NCBI GenBank assembly: GCA_965231815.1
Contig: OZ246890.1
Span: forward strand, 1,799,469 to 1,863,468
Direction of reading: 5' to 3'
Length of the DNA: 64,000 nucleotides
Origin: Acidimicrobiia bacterium
Lineage (GTDB): Bacteria; Actinomycetota; Acidimicrobiia; Spongiisociales; Spongiisociaceae
The notes beneath the pieces are model-generated. The model saw nothing but the letters and a program-made list of their open reading frames with translations, did not search any database and had not been told where the DNA came from. Positions within the stretch are counted from its first letter, which is position 1. Each line of letters starts with the position of its first letter. Shown piece by piece: positions 2,648 through 59,408 of the stretch. Position numbers and translations under genes: made by a program.

Positions 2648-2770
2648 GGGACTGCTCCGGTCTGCGTGTGGTCTGGAAGTCGGGCGGGATGGGGGAGGGT
2701 ACGCCTCCACAGCCCCTAACGGAGGCCGTGGAGGCCTGTTAGTGCCAGCAACTCGCGCAGAATCGGTCGA

Positions 2771-2886
2771 GGAGGGTGCTGAGAAACCCCGTACAAAGGG
2801 GTTCGCCGGCTAATCAAAGCACCCTGACCAGGTAGTTTCACCATACAGCCAACCCCGCTGGATTCGTTTTTCAGCATTCTCCTAGC
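2771..2886 (+). repeat. Interspersed repeat family A copy A1 (diverged, hybrid core)
   Basis: GGAGGGTGCTGAGAAACCCCGTACAAAGGGGTTC ... GTTTTTCAGCATTCTCCTAG with imperfect terminal inverted repeats; intergenic between ilvC and leuA. Confidence 0.7.
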
Positions 2887-4500: not shown

Positions 4501-6197
4501 AGGTCTTCAGGTCCCGTTAGCACGACGTCGTTGGATCCTCCGGCGGGCACCATCGGGAATACCATCTCATCGCGATCCACCTCGAACTCCACGACCACCG
4601 ATCGGTCTTCGATCTCGAGCATCCGCTTGATCGTGTCGTCGACATCCTCGGGACGGTCGGCCCGCAGCCCCACGCATCCCATAGCTTCAGCAAGCTTGAC
4701 GTAATCAGGGAGGTGTCTGCCTAGGTCGGAGGATGAGAACCGTTCGTTGTAGAACAGGCGTTGCCATTGTCTGACCATGCCATGGGCGCTGTTGTTGAAT
4801 ACGGCTACCTTGATGGGGATCTTCTCTACCGAGGCGGTGATCAGCTCCTGAACGGTCATCTGGAAACACCCGTCACCGTCCACGGCTATCACCTGTTTAT
4901 CAGGTCTACCGGCCTTGGCGCCGATGGCTGCCGGGACTGCGAAGCCCATAGTGCCCAGACCTCCGGAGTTGATCCAGTGCCGAGGTTTGTCGAATCCCCA
5001 GTACTGCGAAGCCCACATCTGATGCTGGCCGACCCCCGAGACTACGATGGAATCCTTGTCGGCCAGTTCCCGCAGGCGGGTAAGCACGAACTGAGGTTTG
5101 ATCGGACCGTCCGGTTCCTGCTCGAACCGGAGAGGATGCGTGTCCTGCCATTCCCGGATGGTTCGCCACCATTTCCGTAGCCTTGGCTTCGGGGTATCAC
5201 CCCAGCGCTCGCAGAATGCTTCCAGTATGCGGCCCGCATCTCCTACGATCGGTACCTCCGGAGTACGCACCTTGCCTATTTCGGCCGGGTCTACGTCCCC
5301 GTGAATCACCTTGGCGAAAGGGGCGAAGGAGTTCGGATCGCCCGTGACCCGATCGTCGAAACGAACCCCGACCGCCACCAGCACGTCCGACTTTTGTATC
5401 GCTGTCGTTGCCGCGTATAGCCCGTGCATGCCGGGCATCCCGAGCGTATTCGGATGGCTGTCGGGAATGGCGCCTCTTCCCATCAGGGTGGTCACGACGG
5501 GCATATTGGTCATTTCGGCGAAGGCCAGGAGAGCAGCCGACGCGTTGGCCTTGATGATCCCACCCCCCACGTACAGGACGGGTTGCTCAGCGCCCTGGAT
5601 CATCCGGACGGCTTCTGCGATCCGGCGCGGATGCGGGTTGACGGTGGGGCGGTAACCGGGCATGGATACCGGACCGGGATCGCTCCACTGCAGGGAGGCG
5701 TTCAGTATGTCCTTCGGTAGGTCGACCAGGACGGGTCCGGGCCGCCCTGTCGAGGCGACATGAAACGCTTCGGCCAAGACCTGTGGAATCTCGTCGGGAT
5801 CGGAGACGAAGTAGTTGTGTTTGGTGGCCGGCATGGTGATACCGGTGGTGTACGCCTCCTGGAAAGCGTCATTTCCCACTGCGTTGGTCGGAACCTGTCC
5901 GGTGATAGCCACCATAGGAACCGAGTCCATCAGCGCATCGGCGAGTGGAGTCACGAGGTTGGTGGCGCCCGGCCCCGACGTGGCGATCGTCACCCCGACT
6001 TTGCCCGTTGCCCAAGCATATCCCTCCGCCATGTGTCCGGCACCCTGTTCGTGACGGGCCAGGATATGGCGAAAACCGGCCTCCAGCATCGGATCGTAGG
6101 CGGGCAGGATGGCGCCGCCGGGAATACCGAACGCTACCTCGACATCCAGGTATTCCAGAGCCTTGATCAGTGCTCCTGCACCGGTGATTGTGCTCAT
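4497..6197 (-). CDS. ilvB: Acetolactate synthase large subunit (TPP-dependent)
   Basis: 566-aa TPP enzyme with typical ALS N-terminus; 4-bp overlap with ilvN start. Confidence 0.9.
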   Translation of the reverse strand: MSTITGAGALIKALEYLDVEVAFGIPGGAILPAYDPMLEAGFRHILARHEQGAGHMAEGYAWATGKVGVTIATSGPGATNLVTPLADALMDSVPMVAITGQVPTNAVGNDAFQEAYTTGITMPATKHNYFVSDPDEIPQVLAEAFHVASTGRPGPVLVDLPKDILNASLQWSDPGPVSMPGYRPTVNPHPRRIAEAVRMIQGAEQPVLYVGGGIIKANASAALLAFAEMTNMPVVTTLMGRGAIPDSHPNTLGMPGMHGLYAATTAIQKSDVLVAVGVRFDDRVTGDPNSFAPFAKVIHGDVDPAEIGKVRTPEVPIVGDAGRILEAFCERWGDTPKPRLRKWWRTIREWQDTHPLRFEQEPDGPIKPQFVLTRLRELADKDSIVVSGVGQHQMWASQYWGFDKPRHWINSGGLGTMGFAVPAAIGAKAGRPDKQVIAVDGDGCFQMTVQELITASVEKIPIKVAVFNNSAHGMVRQWQRLFYNERFSSSDLGRHLPDYVKLAEAMGCVGLRADRPEDVDDTIKRMLEIEDRSVVVEFEVDRDEMVFPMVPAGGSNDVVLTGPEDL

Positions 6198-9741: not shown

Positions 9742-9754
9742 GCTCCGATCTTAG

Positions 9755-9962
9755 CCCCGATTATTCATGGATGGAGGTTTGGGGGATGAGTGGAGTAGAA
9801 CCATATTCGCACCCTGACCAGGCAATACAGCTATCGGAGTTCCCCATTCGGGTCCGGTGTAGAGATTCACCTGTCGGGTGAACGGCGGGTTTCTCCTGAT
9901 ACTCGGGTTGAACAGGCGCTACATGCCTCGGTGTGTGGGAAACCTGAATAATCAGGGCTAGA
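9755..9962 (+). repeat. Interspersed repeat family B copy B1
   Basis: CCCCGATTATTCATGGATGGAGG ... GGTGTGTGGGAAACCTGAATAATCAGGGCTAG; near-identical copies at 43626 and 44975 and a reverse copy at 54099. Confidence 0.7.
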
Positions 9963-10250
9963 GCGTGCGGGGAATGGTCGGGACTGTCGCCCCGACCGTG
10001 TCGAGTAACGGCTCGGGAGAGTCTTCGGGCGGGCCGGAGTTCCCGACGGGTTACTCTGCTGGGGATGTGTACCGCACACCTGGATCGTTTTCGCTACTCC
10101 TGCCGGGGTTGTGGATGCGTGCCTATATGGTGACGTCGGTGAGAGCCGGATTCCTCCTTCAGCCCGACGTTCCTCATCCCTCATCGATCCGTCTGAAGTC
10201 TGTAGTGCCCGGGGCTAGCCTTTCCTCTGACCTTTGAGCTTTGTGAGATT

Positions 10251-13200: not shown

Positions 13201-14102
13201 AGCGGGAACGAGCCCTTCACCGTCTCTCGATTCTGGGTGTGGTGAGCGACTATCTCGTCAGATTCAGAGCAGAGACCTTTGTAGTAACCGTTGCCGGAGT
13301 TAGGCCCGACACGGTCGGCGAAGCGTTGGAAGAGTTCGTCAGGCGTAGCCAGCCTGGACTGTTGACTGAGATCAAAGACCGCGTCGGACGGCACGACGAC
13401 CTCATGACTGCAATCGAGGGCTGTGGGCGTGAACTGATCAAGTTCGTATACCGCACCGTCGAGCAAACACGCCGCCGCTCCCTCAGAGAGATGTGGCTAG
13501 CCGCACACGCCGCCGCGCGGAGCAACAATCCCAACCGAGAGCTCCGCCGTCGAATACTCGACTACATGACCGAAGGTGATGTCACCCCTGTCATGCTCCG
13601 CCTGGCGGAAGAGTCCCATTTCAGGTTTTCCGACTGGGTATCGGCGTGGGAATCAATGGAGGGCGACTCAGACGCCCGGGAGTGGCGAGCCGCGGCAGCC
13701 CGTCTGCTCGGCTCCTACCCAACTCATCCCGGCCTGCTGGTGTCGCGGGCCCTACCCGAAGTTCTGTTGGACGACGGTGACCCGAATGAGTTCGAGTCGA
13801 ACCTGCGAGAAGCGTTTCAGTCGGCCAAGAGTGAGTATCAGGCAGACGAAGCAGACACTGTCGGCGCCGTCCGCCTGATTCTCGAACGCGTAATGGAGGA
13901 GCGCCCACTCTGGGGATCTGCCGTGGCCGGCGCGGCTTACTACGCCGGAGTGTCCGACGCAGACGATACCGACTCGTCGGCAACGACCCACACCTCGCGT
14001 GAGAGTTGGCCGATCGCGGCCTTCACTCTCGCCGAAGGCGTTGAGGTTGCTATCTCACTTACACGGGCAGTCCTGGACATCTATAGAGAGGACCGACAGT
14101 GA
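10251..14102 (+). CDS. Multidomain protein: topoisomerase-type C4 zinc finger + DUF559 (Vsr-like PD-(D/E)xK endonuclease) + RecQ-family SF2 helicase + unassigned C-terminal region
   Basis: N-terminal CPRCDHEM ... CSTFPRC; central PVVIEVDGAQHE ... DRLLRSIGIRTIRV (DUF559); helicase motifs LLPTGAGKSL, VVDEAHCVSEWGHDYR, VSTKAFGMGIDKPDIRWVVHHMLPGSIESYYQEVGRAGRNG; GTG start. Confidence 0.8.
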   Translation: MKGMRVVDIPKCPRCDHEMVLRTARKGARAGSRFWGCSTFPRCRGTRKYIGNGRAHPRRGVKVGVAGPTSTSDQSRETFVRRCGSGCPVHVASEGLANSLRKARVDWSDGTTSTYRKLGWSAEYATAGASLRSIGLNGVAALSNCWLASDRAGSLPDEDSLRVLGVMGKLLRRGVAPPLHPESERTLLSSVGLDDLLISGPLPGDVSPTLRSAHRVDRAAFDAIQGDQVEVERGLVESADEERLVSWMIEHHAWAARWLVPQASFDRLLQAGGHRKTGNRRCDFLWAPPGVSPVVIEVDGAQHEQQVLADTERDRLLRSIGIRTIRVPTSELQDGHGHALDRVSTVVSRIGGPATRRYMPASDTDVRLVWGAIQVHRFVLGLCESLRRGFLRGDTWVVEVEDPTGTAVDLVAPYLETLYALDRLWATSSVAPERVLLTTPTGPILLQRTSEGRYERTTVGTEDRARRPQVRMLLQCDLTSCQPIPDADVTPTVVLRSTGVPFLMSDPGTVATRRDRVSLEGEGVRDAMTALLRAVFAKRDFREGQYEAICEVMAGRDCAVLLPTGAGKSLVYQFAGLFLPGRCLVVDPLVALIEDQVEGLHRYGIDRVEGITHDIVSRGDASTIMKAIAEADVYFMLVAPERLQIPDFRETLRELAAGTPVNLAVVDEAHCVSEWGHDYRHSYLSLGRVLRVLCEDSAKEPPPLLALTGTASRAVLRDVLFQLEIRQVSDNSIVRPETFDRPELNYHVVSIDVNYRMPRLRSELRRLPALFGEPRSAFFEPAGKNTFPGLVFVPTVNGFPSLEKITKLTEEVIPSVRMFSGKVPRGFNQTRYKSEKRRNARLFMNNSSVALVSTKAFGMGIDKPDIRWVVHHMLPGSIESYYQEVGRAGRNGDPAHCVLMISEYDPSRNRQLLAEDRSLESARERHGRIRRSERDDVTTALFFHLSNFAGIDTEVSVLVEVAAALAPGAERRNIELPFKGDRSKRERALHRLSILGVVSDYLVRFRAETFVVTVAGVRPDTVGEALEEFVRRSQPGLLTEIKDRVGRHDDLMTAIEGCGRELIKFVYRTVEQTRRRSLREMWLAAHAAARSNNPNRELRRRILDYMTEGDVTPVMLRLAEESHFRFSDWVSAWESMEGDSDAREWRAAAARLLGSYPTHPGLLVSRALPEVLLDDGDPNEFESNLREAFQSAKSEYQADEADTVGAVRLILERVMEERPLWGSAVAGAAYYAGVSDADDTDSSATTHTSRESWPIAAFTLAEGVEVAISLTRAVLDIYREDRQ

Positions 14103-14674
14103 CCGATGGCAACATTGTCGAATTCGAAACCGTACACCGCCGCTTCGGGGAGGCCGTCGAAGCTCTCAAGCAGCTGTCCGAGCTGATGGGTGGGCTACGC
14201 CAGGCCGAAAAGGTGAAAGCGCGAACCGCGGCGACTATGTCCGACGCCTCCGATCGCCTTCGAGAAACGTCCGCAACCCTAGCGTCGTATTGCGAACTCT
14301 TGCGCTCGGCGTTGGCTTCAACGATTCAAGCCCTGCAGTCCGCCGAGAATCTAGCGACCGGGGCTGAGCTATCAGCGATCCGAACCGAGGTGGCCTCCAA
14401 TAAGGCAGCCCTTGCGCACCTAGTCGAGGCCGAAGATTCTCGCAACGTCAAGCTTGCCGACTTGGCTAACCGACAGAACACGATCGCCGACACAGTCGAG
14501 ACAATCCAGAATAGGATCGACGGAGCTCTCTCTCAGGCGCAACAATCTCGAGACAATGCCCTCTCCGAACTCACGGAAACCAAGAACCGACTCGAGATAC
14601 TCGAAATCCGCCTCAGCGGACTACCGCCCAAAATCCGCCGCAAGTACGACCTAGACAACCTTTCACCCTCCTAA
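14099..14674 (+). CDS. Coiled-coil protein, translationally coupled to the upstream helicase gene
   Basis: GTG start overlaps the upstream TGA (GTGA); 191 aa, heptad-like Ala/Leu/Glu/Arg-rich sequence, no catalytic motif recognised. Confidence 0.6.
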   Translation: MTDGNIVEFETVHRRFGEAVEALKQLSELMGGLRQAEKVKARTAATMSDASDRLRETSATLASYCELLRSALASTIQALQSAENLATGAELSAIRTEVASNKAALAHLVEAEDSRNVKLADLANRQNTIADTVETIQNRIDGALSQAQQSRDNALSELTETKNRLEILEIRLSGLPPKIRRKYDLDNLSPS

Positions 14675-15826: not shown

Positions 15827-16258
15827 GTGGCCTTACAGCCCATGTACTTCGAGCCCCGACAGATACTGAACTCCCAAGGCTATGCCGACCCTCCCGGTCC
15901 CGATAAGGGGGTTCTTCGCACCAGGTACATCGCCTTGGTGGAGGCCCGTCTTTACGATCGCAATGCTTCTGCCTTACAGCGCCAAGGGAGGCTGGCAACC
16001 TACGCACCATACGAGGGCCAGGAAGCGATCCAGATCGGAGCGGTAGCGCAGCTCCAGCCCGCGTGGCACCCCGATCATTCCTACGGTACGTCCGCCATCC
16101 TGTCGGTGGGGCGTTCCCATCCGAGACCGGTCGTAAGGGACGGTGCGGTTGCGATCGCTCACCAGTTTCCTCTGAGCCTTTCCTACGACCACCGCATAAT
16201 CGACGGAGCCGAGGGGCGCCGGTTCATGGCAGCGGTCACCGATGCATTGGAGAGCTAG
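15827..16258 (+). pseudogene. Deletion scar of a 2-oxoacid (branched-chain keto-acid/pyruvate) dehydrogenase operon: E1-alpha N-terminal fragment fused in frame to the E2 C-terminal ~50 aa
   Basis: ARLYDRNASALQRQGRLATYAPYEGQEAIQIGA (E1-alpha TPP region) followed by AILSVGRSHPRPVVRDGAVAIAHQFPLSLSYDHRIIDGAEGRRFM (E2 catalytic C-terminus) in a 143-aa ORF. Confidence 0.6.
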
Positions 16259-16260
16259 GA

Positions 16261-16372
16261 GGGTCCTGAAAAACGAATCTTACGGGGTTCGGCGGTTGGC
16301 AAACTGCCTGGTCATGGAGTTGTGGGTTAGCGGCCGAACCCCTTTGTGCGGGGTTTCTCAGCACCCTCCTAG
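16261..16372 (-). repeat. Interspersed repeat family A copy A2 (reverse orientation)
   Basis: Reverse complement matches A3/A4 almost exactly. Confidence 0.75.
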
Positions 16373-18220: not shown

Positions 18221-18293
18221 GCCGGGGTAGCTCAGTCGGCAGAGCGGCTCATTCGTAATGAGCAGGTCAGGGGTTCGATTCCCCTCTCCGGCT
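18221..18293 (+). tRNA. tRNA-Thr (anticodon CGT)
   Basis: Cloverleaf folded by hand: acceptor GCCGGGG/CTCCGGC, anticodon stem GCTCA/TGAGC, loop TTCGTAA, T-arm AGGGG-TTCGATT-CCCCT. Confidence 0.9.
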
Positions 18294-31100: not shown

Positions 31101-31127
31101 AGGTGGTCAGGACCATGGCGGAGGCTA

Positions 31128-31243
31128 GGAGGGTGCTGAGAAACCCCGTACAAAGGGGTTCACCCGCTAACCCACAACTCCATGACCAGGCGGTTTGCCG
31201 ACCACCGAACCCCGTAAGATTCGTTTTTCAGGACTCTCCTAGG
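31128..31243 (+). repeat. Interspersed repeat family A copy A3
   Basis: CTAGGAGGGTGCTGAGAAACCCCGTACAAAGGGGTTCACCCGCTAACCCACAACTCCATGACCAGGCGGTTTGCC ... TTTTTCAGGACTCTCCTAG; between DUF2520 gene and panC. Confidence 0.75.
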
Positions 31244-42979: not shown

Positions 42980-43130
42980 GACCGTACTTCCTTCGATGCT
43001 CCGGCCCGCCTGCCCCGGCGTAGGCAGGGCAGCAGGCTAAGTGCCTTACCCGGCCCCGGGTTCCGGTGCCCGAACGTGTGCGGGACCCGCGGAGGATGAT
43101 CGAAGCTGTATTACCTGGTCAGGACGTGAC

Positions 43131-43246
43131 TAGGAGGTGCTGAGAAACCCCGTACAAAGGGGTTCAGCCGCTAACCCACAACTCCATGACCAGGCGGTTT
43201 GCCGACCACCGAACCCCGTGAGATTCGTTTTTGAGCACCCTCCCAG
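43131..43246 (+). repeat. Interspersed repeat family A copy A4
   Basis: Near-identical to A3; preceded at ~43105-43125 by an inverted fragment of the family B core. Confidence 0.75.
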
Positions 43247-43625: not shown

Positions 43626-43832
43626 GCCCGATTATTCATGGATGGAGGTTTGGAGGATGAGTGGAGTAGACCATATTCGCGCCCTGACCAGGCAATACAG
43701 CTATCGGCGTTTCCCATCCCGGTCCTATTTAGAGATTCACCTATCGGGTGAACGGTGGGTAGCCCCCCAAAACTCGGGTGGAACTGGCGTAACATGCCTC
43801 GGTGTGTGGGAAACCTGAATAATCAGGGCTAG
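43626..43832 (+). repeat. Interspersed repeat family B copy B2
   Basis: Full-length B copy just downstream of the polyprenyl synthase gene. Confidence 0.7.
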
Positions 43833-44974: not shown

Positions 44975-45184
44975 ACCCCTATTTTTGATGGATGGGGGTT
45001 TGGGTATGGGTGGAGGAAGCCACAATAGCGTCCTGACCAGGCAATACACCTATCGGCGTTTCCCGTCCCGGTCCGGTGTGGAGATGCACCCGCCGGGTGA
45101 AACCGGTCGGTTCCTACTAAATAATCAGGTTGAACCGGCGATACATGCCGCGGTGTGTGGGAAACCCGAACGATCAGGGTTAAA
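44975..45184 (+). repeat. Interspersed repeat family B copy B3
   Basis: Full-length B copy between the polyprenyl synthase start and clpC. Confidence 0.7.
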
Positions 45185-53989: not shown

Positions 53990-54098
53990 CGGATTCTCCC
54001 TTCCCTGTTGACAGGATTCCGGCGGGTCAGCTCGACAATCCGGTGCTTCACCGCTCTTGTCAACCCGAACGTCACGAAACGGTTCGAGCCGACCACTC

Positions 54099-54304
54099 CT
54101 AGCCCTGATTATTCAGGTTTCCCGCACACCGAGGCATGTAACACCAGTTCCAACCCGAGTATACGGCGAAACCCACCATTCACCCGGAGGTGAATCTCTG
54201 CACCGGCCCGGGATGGGAGACACCGATAGTTGTATTGCCTGGTCAGGGGCGTGATTACGGCGTAATCGACTCATCTGTCAAACCCCCATCCATGAATAAT
54301 CGGG
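54099..54304 (-). repeat. Interspersed repeat family B copy B4 (reverse orientation)
   Basis: CTAGCCCTGATTATTCAGGTTTCCCGCACACCGAGGCATG ... CCATCCATGAATAATCGGGG. Confidence 0.7.
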
Positions 54305-54332
54305 GCTGAAGTAGGACTGATGGTTATCGTTC

Positions 54333-57889: not shown

Positions 57890-58774
57890 ATGATTGAAAC
57901 GCGGGTTGTTCGTAGTTCCGATGCCGCTGGTGGGTCGGATGGATCGGAGGGTGGTTTGGAAGAGACCGGAGAGGTGTCGGTTGCTCCGGCCCGTCAGGTT
58001 CCCAAGAAGGCAGCCGCTAAGAAAGCTGCCGCTAAGAAAGCTGCCGCTAAGAAGGCACCTGCCAAGAAGGCTGCCGCTAAGAAGGCACCTGCCAAGAAGG
58101 CTGCCGCTAAGAAGGCTGCCGCTAAGAGGGCTCCCGCCAAGAAGGCTGCCCCTAAGAAAGCTGCCGCCAAGAGGGCTCCCGCCAAGAAAGCGCCCGTGAG
58201 GAGGGCCCCACCCAAGCGCCGGAATCCGCGGTCACGCAAAGCTTCCCGGAAGTCGTCTTCAACCAATAGGCGGAAGATTTCATTCAAAGTAGGCGACAAG
58301 GTAGTCCATCCTCATCACGGAGCTGCGTTGATCACCAGACAAGTTGAACAGGAGGTCGTGGGCGAGAGTCGTTCCTACTTCGAACTCCAAGTTGCAACCG
58401 AACAACTCACCGTGTTCGTGCCGGTAACGTCGATGGATCAGATTATCCGGCCGGTGATCTCCAAGACCGCCGCTACCAAAGTGATGCGCATCTTCAAGGA
58501 AGACCCTCAGTCATCGGGAAACAACTGGAGTCGATGGTACAAGGTGCTCAACGAGAAGATGACCTCCGGCGACATCTACCAAGTGGCGGAGGTGGTCAGG
58601 GATCTGACCTATTCCCAGCACACCAAAGGTATTTCCCCGGCCCTCAAACGCATGCTGTCACGGGCACGGGTAACGCTGACCAGTGAACTCGCCTATGCCC
58701 TCAGTATCAGCACGGAAGAGGCGGTCGAGCGTCTTGATCGGGCTCTCCCCGATGCGGAGTCCGTAGGCGTTTAG
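57890..58774 (+). CDS. carD: CarD/CdnL-family RNA polymerase-binding regulator with ~130-aa N-terminal Lys/Ala-repeat extension
   Basis: [21 protein letters not shown]-interacting domain and [28 protein letters not shown]; N-terminal [10 protein letters not shown] repeats; followed by ispD-ispF-cysS as in mycobacteria. Confidence 0.8.
58005..58195 (+). repeat. Tandem 15-bp coding repeat (GCCGCTAAGAAAGCT-like, AAKKA pentapeptide) inside carD
   Basis: About 12 consecutive near-identical 15-nt units. Confidence 0.7.
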
Positions 58775-59056
58775 GGCTTGATCGTTCATGTTTCCGGCTC
58801 CCTTGTGTCCTGAGTCGGAGATTCATTGACGATCGCGATAACCATCCGGGTGCACCGGCAGGTTCGGGGGTCCGAGAACGCGAAAAACGCCGGAACGGTG
58901 ACCTCCAAACAGGGCCCGCCCCCGCCTCCACCTCCGAGGTCTCCTGAACGCGATCCGCTGAACCCCGTCGTCGGGGGAGACGGTCGAATTGTCCGCATTT
59001 TGATGATCCCTGCCCCGGTTCGTTCGGTACCGAACAACCCGAACCGGCGGTGTTTA

Positions 59057-59263
59057 ACCCCGATTTTTCATGCGAGGCGTTTGCCCCGGCGATTTGGCAG
59101 CCTGAATGGGCTCCTGACCTGGGATTACGGTGGACTTGACAGGCTCGTCGGGTTGACCGCGACCGTCACCCATGAGCTGTATACGAATGGAGCACGTAAA
59201 ACGGGCTTGACCTGGCGGTTTATGGGTGGGTGTGTCTGGAAACATGAAGAATCAGGGTTAAGG
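59057..59263 (+). repeat. Degenerate family B copy B5
   Basis: Ends CCCCGATTTTTCATG ... GGAAACATGAAGAATCAGGGTTAAGG match B termini at B-like length; interior strongly diverged. Confidence 0.5.
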
Positions 59264-59408
59264 CTATCCACCATTATGCAAACAGGGGGGGACACTTCCG
59301 GAATCCGACACCCGGAATCCGCGACCCAATCCGGAACACACCGGCTGGTCGGATCGATCCTTCCCCCGAGACGAGGCTTCCCGCAACACAAGCGAATAGG
59401 TACGTGCA

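Follow-up and report, generated by a model that had tools for sequence, protein, structure and literature searches.

The window analysed here, a 64,000-nt stretch of Acidimicrobiia DNA, carries an interspersed repeat, family B, whose copies lie beside ilvD, a polyprenyl synthase gene and clpC, a nucleoside hydrolase gene and ispD. An initial annotation had described five copies of a non-coding interspersed repeat with short terminal inverted repeats, a description that holds, the repeat being of the MITE type. All five copies are real and had been placed correctly to within 1-6 nt, the ends given at the time taking in the flanking CTAG/TTAA. With the core bounds defined as CCCC to GGG, the window holds the following elements, the last being a sixth piece that had been overlooked:

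9755-9957 (+): B1 core, flanked by TTAG (9751-9754) and CTAG (9958-9961); alignment and profile match
43626-43828 (+): B2 core, flanked by CTAG and CTAG; alignment and profile match; in a convergent context, 55-60 nt downstream of the polyprenyl synthase stop
44976-45179 (+): B3 core, flanked by GTAA and TTAA; alignment and profile match; an older copy with more mutations, lying between the polyprenyl synthase gene and clpC, which are divergent
54103-54305 (-): B4 core, flanked by TCAG and CTAG (element orientation); alignment and profile match; between a P450 gene (3' end) and the nucleoside hydrolase gene (5' end)
59058-59257 (+): B5, a divergent relative that shares the termini (CCCCGATTTTTCA...TGAAGAATCAGGG) and has TTAA as both flanks
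43104-43133 (-): 30 nt of the B core (CCTGACCAGGTAATAC), adjoining a family-A element at its left end; profile E=7.8e-4

In full-length alignments, B2, B4 and B3 are 88.6%, 83.9% and 79.5% identical to B1, respectively. B5 matches the B profile weakly but over its full length (nhmmer E=7.5e-9, model positions 2-212) and keeps both termini; no close copy of it was found among the sampled loci. The 16-nt core CCTGACCAGGCAATAC occurs eight times in the window at <=3 mismatches, against 0.47 expected from shuffled sequence, and the 28-nt right end four times against 0 expected, which excludes chance as the source of the repeat. The consensus ends and the short inverted repeat GATTATTCA/TGAATAATC reported before are correct, and the true repeat is longer, CTAGCCCCGATTATTCA versus TGAATAATCAGGGCTAG, with 16/17 positions complementary. 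The distances to neighbouring genes also stand: B1 ends 13 nt from the ilvD ATG (14 bp claimed), the B3 core lies ~83 nt from clpC (79 when counted from the flanking repeat) and ~92 nt from the polyprenyl synthase start (92 bp claimed), the B4 core ~113 nt from the nucleoside hydrolase gene (110 claimed) and the B5 core ~151 nt from ispD (146 claimed).

A second MITE-like family, A, of ~113 bp is also present:

2770-2885 (+): family A
16255-16372 (-): family A
31125-31242 (+): family A
43136-43246 (+): family A

Its terminal inverted repeats read GGAGGGTGCTGAGAAA/TTTTCAGCACCCTCC, and a TAG flank is found in three of the four copies on each side. The centre of family A shares the 10-mer TGACCAGGCA with B, a coincidence with an estimated chance probability of ~0.04. 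Beyond the window, A-like sequence follows a truncated B in locus L014 (~3709) and, in L012, directly adjoins a B copy at its right end.

Across 63 full-length copies, the B core measures 198-205 bp (core ends CCCCGATTATTCA...TGAATAATCAGGG) with a mean pairwise identity of 86%. Conservation is high from CCCC to GGG plus four flanking nucleotides on each side and falls to background beyond. The terminal inverted repeat spans ~17 nt with one mismatch, and its terminal pairs are retained in 60-65 of 65 copies. A small coding ORF within B is ruled out by the length variation, by stops in all frames and by the lack of periodicity: indels shift the frame, and divergence amounts to 8.2%, 9.5% and 7.7% at the three codon positions. 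The earlier observation that the internal ORF is not conserved thus holds, given lengths of 198-205 nt, stops in every frame and no 3-nt periodicity. When the B consensus was compared by blastx with 120 IS630 transposases, no match had an E value below 3. We consider it very likely that family B is a non-coding MITE with ~17-nt terminal inverted repeats that is moved in trans by a transposase, most probably of the IS630/Tc1-mariner type. It is a new MITE family from an uncultured Acidimicrobiia lineage, and ordinary in kind; a text search of the literature returned nothing relevant on the B end sequences or on MITEs in Acidimicrobiia.

Could the copies instead be structured non-coding RNA genes or cis-regulatory RNA modules under selection, for instance promoter cassettes or regulators within the 5'-UTR? 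A long hairpin can form between the termini (MFE -81 kcal/mol for the plus and -72 for the minus strand), B1 sits 13 nt from the ilvD start in three genomes, and the 10-mer TGACCAGGCA is common to B and the unrelated family A. Against this, z-scores for folding reach only -1.8 and -2.8, copies are found in either orientation and in every kind of intergenic context, their presence varies between close genomes, and the consensus holds no sigma-70-like promoter. The initial annotation had named a known structured RNA gene as one outcome that would speak against its reading; B matches no Rfam family at the gathering threshold, and at E<=10 the best match (E 0.82, 13 bits) does not rise above noise. 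(The only Rfam match in the window at the gathering threshold is a tRNA gene at 18221-18293.) A consensus fold of 65 copies (RNAalifold) retains the terminal stem only, and a conserved internal fold is rejected. In the MFE fold of the consensus, evaluated over the same 65 copies, pairs changed on both sides number 8 versus 12.7 in shuffles, and paired cells amount to 90.1% versus 89.6%. This absence of an excess of compensatory changes argues that the interior is decaying neutrally; the sole truly co-varying pair in B is the junction pair described below. We thus regard an RNA function under selection as very improbable.

Copy number and turnover of family B

A census beyond the window, as the initial annotation had proposed, revealed many further copies. 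We scanned one genome per species (185,579 GTDB species representatives) for a 25-nt core motif and obtained 54 exact matches in 49 blocks, all of them in the Acidimicrobiia MAG OY760694.1 (4.14 Mb); no other representative contained an exact match to this core. A profile made from full-length copies gave 77 strong matches in 0.46 Mb, that is, in the window and the 49 OY760694.1 blocks. Among bystander copies, found only by sharing a block with an exact-core copy, 10 of 29 carry the exact core, and from these we estimate roughly 150 B copies in OY760694.1 and, per genome, a copy number of order 10^2. The window stems from a different genome: its ilvD region alone matches OY760694.1, with an identity of 94%. 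B copies are also found in a third related genome, ERZ25069711 (4.02 Mb; ~91% nucleotide identity).

Since the three sampled genomes split, B has gained and lost copies, and some have been replaced. B3 occurs both in the window and in the related locus L050 (4965-5175), and L051 and L052 are empty at this site with alignable flanks. B2 is absent from the orthologous region of L050, and B4 from the orthologous site in both L050 and L051. Conversely, L050 has a copy of its own (13961-14172) on the other side of the nucleoside hydrolase gene, which the window does not have. The "empty" B4 site in L050 has no TA and is not clean; divergence of the intergenic DNA was too great for clean empty sites to be obtained for B4 and for the L050-specific copy. 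B provides strain-level markers, since its copies vary between genomes with ~91-94% nucleotide identity in the compared regions. It should also be masked or annotated in these Acidimicrobiia genomes, where it accounts for several over-long spurious ORFs and odd intergenic lengths.

When window positions 54090-54316 are set against L050 (15219-15238), the B4 insertion seems to have added 9 nt (CTACTTCAG) on one side and CTAG on the other. Either bases were lost in L050 or flanking bases moved with the element.

Other insertions involve the copies themselves. One B lies inside another B (L026 7155-7501), and in L006 a B copy is split by a 957-bp IS5-family element (L006 6284-7241) with a TAA duplication; this element encodes a 299-aa DDE_Tnp_1/DUF4096 transposase between inverted repeats GAGCGTCCGCGGGTAGG and sits at around position 152-156 of the B copy, the same internal spot that is used by the nested B in L026. 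Foldback relics of 16 bp, CCCTGAATAATCAGGG, which consist of the termini only, are found in L004 (1368-1383, flanked by CTA/CTAG) and in L014 (6580-6595, flanked by CTAA/TTAG). A 21-bp foldback relic, CCCCGATTATTATAATCGGGG, is present in only one of two paralogous copies in L075 (~4668-4692); the empty site there reads AACAAG, without a TA, yet the right junction of the relic is TTAA. In addition, a segment of at least 1.4 kb that carries a 369-aa ORF is duplicated between L002 (6489-7885) and L034 (1-1396) with 97.5% identity. In both loci the left tip of a B copy marks the exact end of the duplicate, and the flanks diverge at the base before TAG; the duplication may have arisen by recombination at the element or by mobilisation of flanking DNA.

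The ilvD site offers the closest view of this turnover. B1 lies 13 nt upstream of the ilvD ATG (9741, minus strand), just beyond the GGAG ribosome-binding site. The site is filled in the window, in OY760694.1 (L003 2226-2435) and in ERZ25069711 (L065), and empty in GCA_026710435.1 (L066), which reads ...CCCTC|CTAA|GATTGGGGCATG and has one CTAA, or TTAG when read in element orientation, immediately ahead of the ribosome-binding site. The three occupants are mutually 78-88% identical, their flanks are 92-100% identical, and each occupant has a 95.5-97% identical paralog elsewhere. Diverged copies between more similar flanks, with close paralogs at other positions, imply that the occupant was replaced, by re-insertion or by gene conversion. 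This re-occupation by different subfamily members points to recent activity. In a separate observation, a non-coding block upstream of ilvD, CACATCCCCAGCAGAGTAACCCGTCGG (window ~10040-10080), is kept in the window, in L003 and L065 and in the B-less L066; it may serve to regulate ilvD or the divergent helicase-like gene.

Junctions and target sites

We compared the junctions of 63 full-length copies. The left flank reads [T33 C20 G7 A3]-T-A-[G48 A14] and the right flank [C49 T13]-T-A-[G49 A13], with TA invariant on the left (61-63 of 63 copies) and on the right (57-62 of 63). If the junctions are written as x-T-A-N|CCCC (left) and GGG|N'-T-A-N (right), G accounts for 78% of N and A for ~21%, and x is T in 52% and C in 32%. 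The flanking TAG or TAA is identical on both sides in ~57/63 copies. The base between GGG and the right-hand TAN is the complement of N in ~56/63, and the right junction forms the palindrome CTAG or TTAA in as many (~56/63), with CTAG in 43/63. None of 300 permutations reached the mutual information that links the last base of the left flank to its counterpart in the right flank. The empty ilvD site holds one copy of TTAG.

These junctions fit no plain TA, 3-bp or 4-bp duplication. A plain TA duplication does not predict that the base adjoining B co-varies with the flank. A 4-bp duplication is excluded, since the fourth left base (x) matches the first right base at chance level (25/63 copies versus ~23 expected). 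The copies flanked by TAA/TTAA do not form one subfamily either: they are spread over at least eight sequence subfamilies, often as sister pairs, which means that the junction state changes with transposition, though not freely.

A true 3-bp duplication of TAG/TAA by an IS5/PIF-Harbinger-like enzyme, which would make B a MITE of another superfamily, agrees with the identity of TAR on both sides of most copies and with one 16-bp mini-relic, TAG|CCCTGATTATTCAGGG|TAG, without the extra base. An active IS5-family element in the same genome produces a 3-bp duplication of TAA, and one B copy has even been hit by it. We judge this origin unlikely: the G...C termini of B within CTAG mirror those of local IS630 elements, and the ends of the resident IS5 element, GAGCGTCCGCGGGTAGG, are unrelated to those of B. 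Typical 3-bp targets of the IS5/PIF groups, moreover, are TNA or TWA, not TAR. The IS5-family element in L006, examined as a potential partner of B, was rejected on the same ground of unrelated ends (GAGCGTCCGCGGGTAGG).

The asymmetry of the junctions is not predicted by a symmetric DDE reaction. Together with a right junction that is almost always CTAG/TTAA, an insertion orientation of ~24:1 relative to the TTAG target and the replacement in place of the ilvD-site copy, it would be compatible with a REP/REPIN-like or other host-maintained palindromic repeat (spread by a RAYT, an IS200/IS605-like enzyme, or by recombination) or with a site-specific recombinase acting on a CTAG/TTAA core. B is, however, a 203-bp unit with ~17-nt terminal inverted repeats and a flanking TAR direct repeat, features that REPINs, which are short palindromic units or doublets linked to a RAYT gene, and IS200/605 derivatives are not known to have, and in an unsystematic look no recombinase or RAYT gene was noticed beside any copy. 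The chance that B belongs to either of these classes appears remote.

We prefer to see B as a MITE mobilised by an IS630/Tc1-mariner-type enzyme. Its junctions follow a rule: the right side is almost always N'TAN, N is copied at the left, and CTAG and TTAA switch within close subfamilies. That this rule might reflect an asymmetric, target-dependent mechanism is a speculation to which we assign a low probability. Such a mechanism might involve base-pairing of the tip with the target, or re-templating of the tip from it; alternatively, only one of the two ends might pass through a hairpin or palindromic-addition step. If the rule were indeed mechanistic, the widespread CCCYGATTATTCA termini would be moved by an asymmetric enzyme with a target-dependent tip, a behaviour undescribed for IS630-type elements.

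The candidate transposase and comparable elements

The initial annotation had suggested a search for an autonomous partner sharing the termini. We found none in the ~0.55 Mb examined (the window, 0.39 Mb of OY760694.1 and related loci), nor in scans of JGI and IMG/VR data. Solo or distant inverted repeats in all the examined sequence comprised only B copies and the 16-bp mini-relics. A first JGI scan with the 22-nt left end gave nothing, a second with a gapped two-end pattern gave MITE-sized elements only, and the IMG/VR scan gave three unpaired matches. Paired B-type ends read CCCYGATTATTCA...TGAATAATCRGGG. On nine JGI metagenome contigs (37-52% GC), CCCYGATTATTCA termini bound elements of 190-215 bp whose interiors are unrelated to B; the unspecified bases are exactly CCCY in six contigs and one base off in two, and several elements are flanked by TAA/TAG. 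The occurrence of these termini on unrelated elements indicates a group wider than this lineage, which implies a widespread cognate enzyme.

Leads towards such an enzyme come from IS630-family elements of the same lineage. The only IS630-family transposase gene seen in OY760694.1 is a relic in L014, frameshifted and truncated at its 5' end, whose terminus coincides with the TA beside a B fragment; tblastn with this relic revealed no second copy. Intact relatives on other contigs encode HTH and DDE_3 domains and are bounded as C-TA-GTGTCCTGA...TCAGGACAC-TA-G at seven sites. G...C tips next to the TA in CTAG are common to B and these local elements. The right end of B shares CCTGATT with the IS630 ends at a 2-nt offset, with 13/24 positions matching overall, a weak similarity (shuffle p ~0.02, the best of 10 comparisons and uncorrected). 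The TA/CTAG flanks and the CCTGATT common to local IS630 ends are suggestive and favour an IS630-type enzyme for B.

The Acidimicrobiales IS630 elements (a 1.17-kb element in L053; P0173 in L055-L064) thus resemble B in their CTAG targets, in TA on both sides, in G...C termini, in CCTGATT/CCTGAG near the tip and in lineage, and in L014 one decayed copy lies directly against a B fragment. They differ in being autonomous, with a 364-aa HTH + DDE_3 transposase, in their termini, which read GTGTCCTGA against GCCCYGATTATTCA for B, and in being strictly CTAG/CTAG at all seven sites, whereas the left flank of B has T in 52% of copies. A peculiarity of these IS630-family elements (L053 2581-2595; gene ends in L055-L064) is that the transposase ORF crosses the right inverted repeat, its TAG stop being completed by the target TA and the flanking G.

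Among known systems, RUP, the repeat unit of pneumococcus, is a 107-bp MITE whose proposed mover, IS630-Spn1, was deduced from end similarity (PMC2229807). RUP and B are alike in being short, non-coding and intergenic, in numbering about a hundred copies and in having terminal inverted repeats and TA-containing targets (PMC2229807); the transposase of RUP is supplied in trans (PMC2229807), as would be the case for B. B differs in being twice as long and GC-rich, in residing in Acidimicrobiia, in sharing only a heptamer with a resident IS630 end, with no intact partner found, and in junctions made of a TAR repeat and a palindromic right junction instead of a plain TA. The Correia/NEMIS elements of Neisseria are gene-adjacent and co-transcribed, and some are known to alter the expression of their neighbours (PMC2229807). 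Like B, they are TA-flanked MITEs with long terminal inverted repeats that lie beside genes (PMC2229807). They have no sequence relationship to B, and an IHF site and documented promoter and RNase III functions are known from Correia elements but not from B.

As we picture it, a transposase encoded elsewhere would bind the ends of B and excise or copy the unit. Insertion would occur at TA-containing sites, mostly YTAG and less often NTAA, and flank the unit with TAG or TAA at either end; an enzyme of the IS630/Tc1-mariner type, the most probable one, would duplicate the TA inside CTAG-like targets. Insertions inside genes are not seen, and those exactly at gene ends would be tolerated and accumulate because the target trinucleotide is also a stop codon, which is regenerated on insertion.

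Gene context of family B copies

Gene calls in the loci were made with our own crude codon-usage caller. By these calls, 74 of 77 B copies are intergenic, overlapping no predicted gene by more than 30 nt. The 62 copies for which both neighbours were called divide into 20 in convergent, 18 in divergent and 24 in tandem contexts, the background being 57, 56 and 234; in tandem contexts, 16 copies have the same orientation and 8 the opposite one. In 17 of the 63 full-length copies (27%), the junction TAG/TAA is the stop codon of a predicted gene, eight times on the left and nine on the right. B occupies ~11% of TAG/TAA stops versus ~1.8% of other intergenic TAR trinucleotides, an association that could be due to target preference or to the survival of harmless insertions. 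As about a quarter of the genes next to a copy have B on their stop codon, a B hairpin probably forms the end of many mRNAs.

The proposal that copies often lie in 5' regions and may supply or modify promoters is not supported as a trend, judging from the 20 convergent versus 18 divergent contexts and the 17/63 copies on a stop codon. A sigma-70-like promoter was sought and found neither in B1 nor in the consensus; B3 has one marginal, copy-specific site. The promoter-proximal block GGCTTAAGCTTGTATCCT, which lies between B3 and clpC, is also conserved where relatives lack B3, which shows that B3 did not replace it.

At ilvD, an effect of B1 is plausible from the arrangement of the DNA. B1 separates the ilvD ribosome-binding site from the native upstream DNA in three genomes, and with the element wedged in this position the ilvD mRNA must either start inside B1 or run through it. 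Neighbouring genes might accordingly be affected in two ways, by displacement of the 5'-UTR or promoter at ilvD and, where a copy adjoins the stop codon of a gene, by a hairpin in the 3'-UTR.

Two further features were observed around B5. The carD-ispD spacer (window 58803-59398) is ~530 bp longer than in the 91%-identical L050, and B5 lies inside the extra DNA. This DNA starts with GTGTCCTGAGT, which matches the tip of local IS630-family elements, and its right end is not definable; it may be a decayed IS630-type element with B5 nested in it. Finally, a tandem 15-nt repeat at window 57972-58226 encodes an Ala/Lys/Pro-rich tail (AAKKA-type) at the N-terminus of CarD, and the L050 CarD ortholog gives weak HC2 matches in addition to its CarD Pfam matches.
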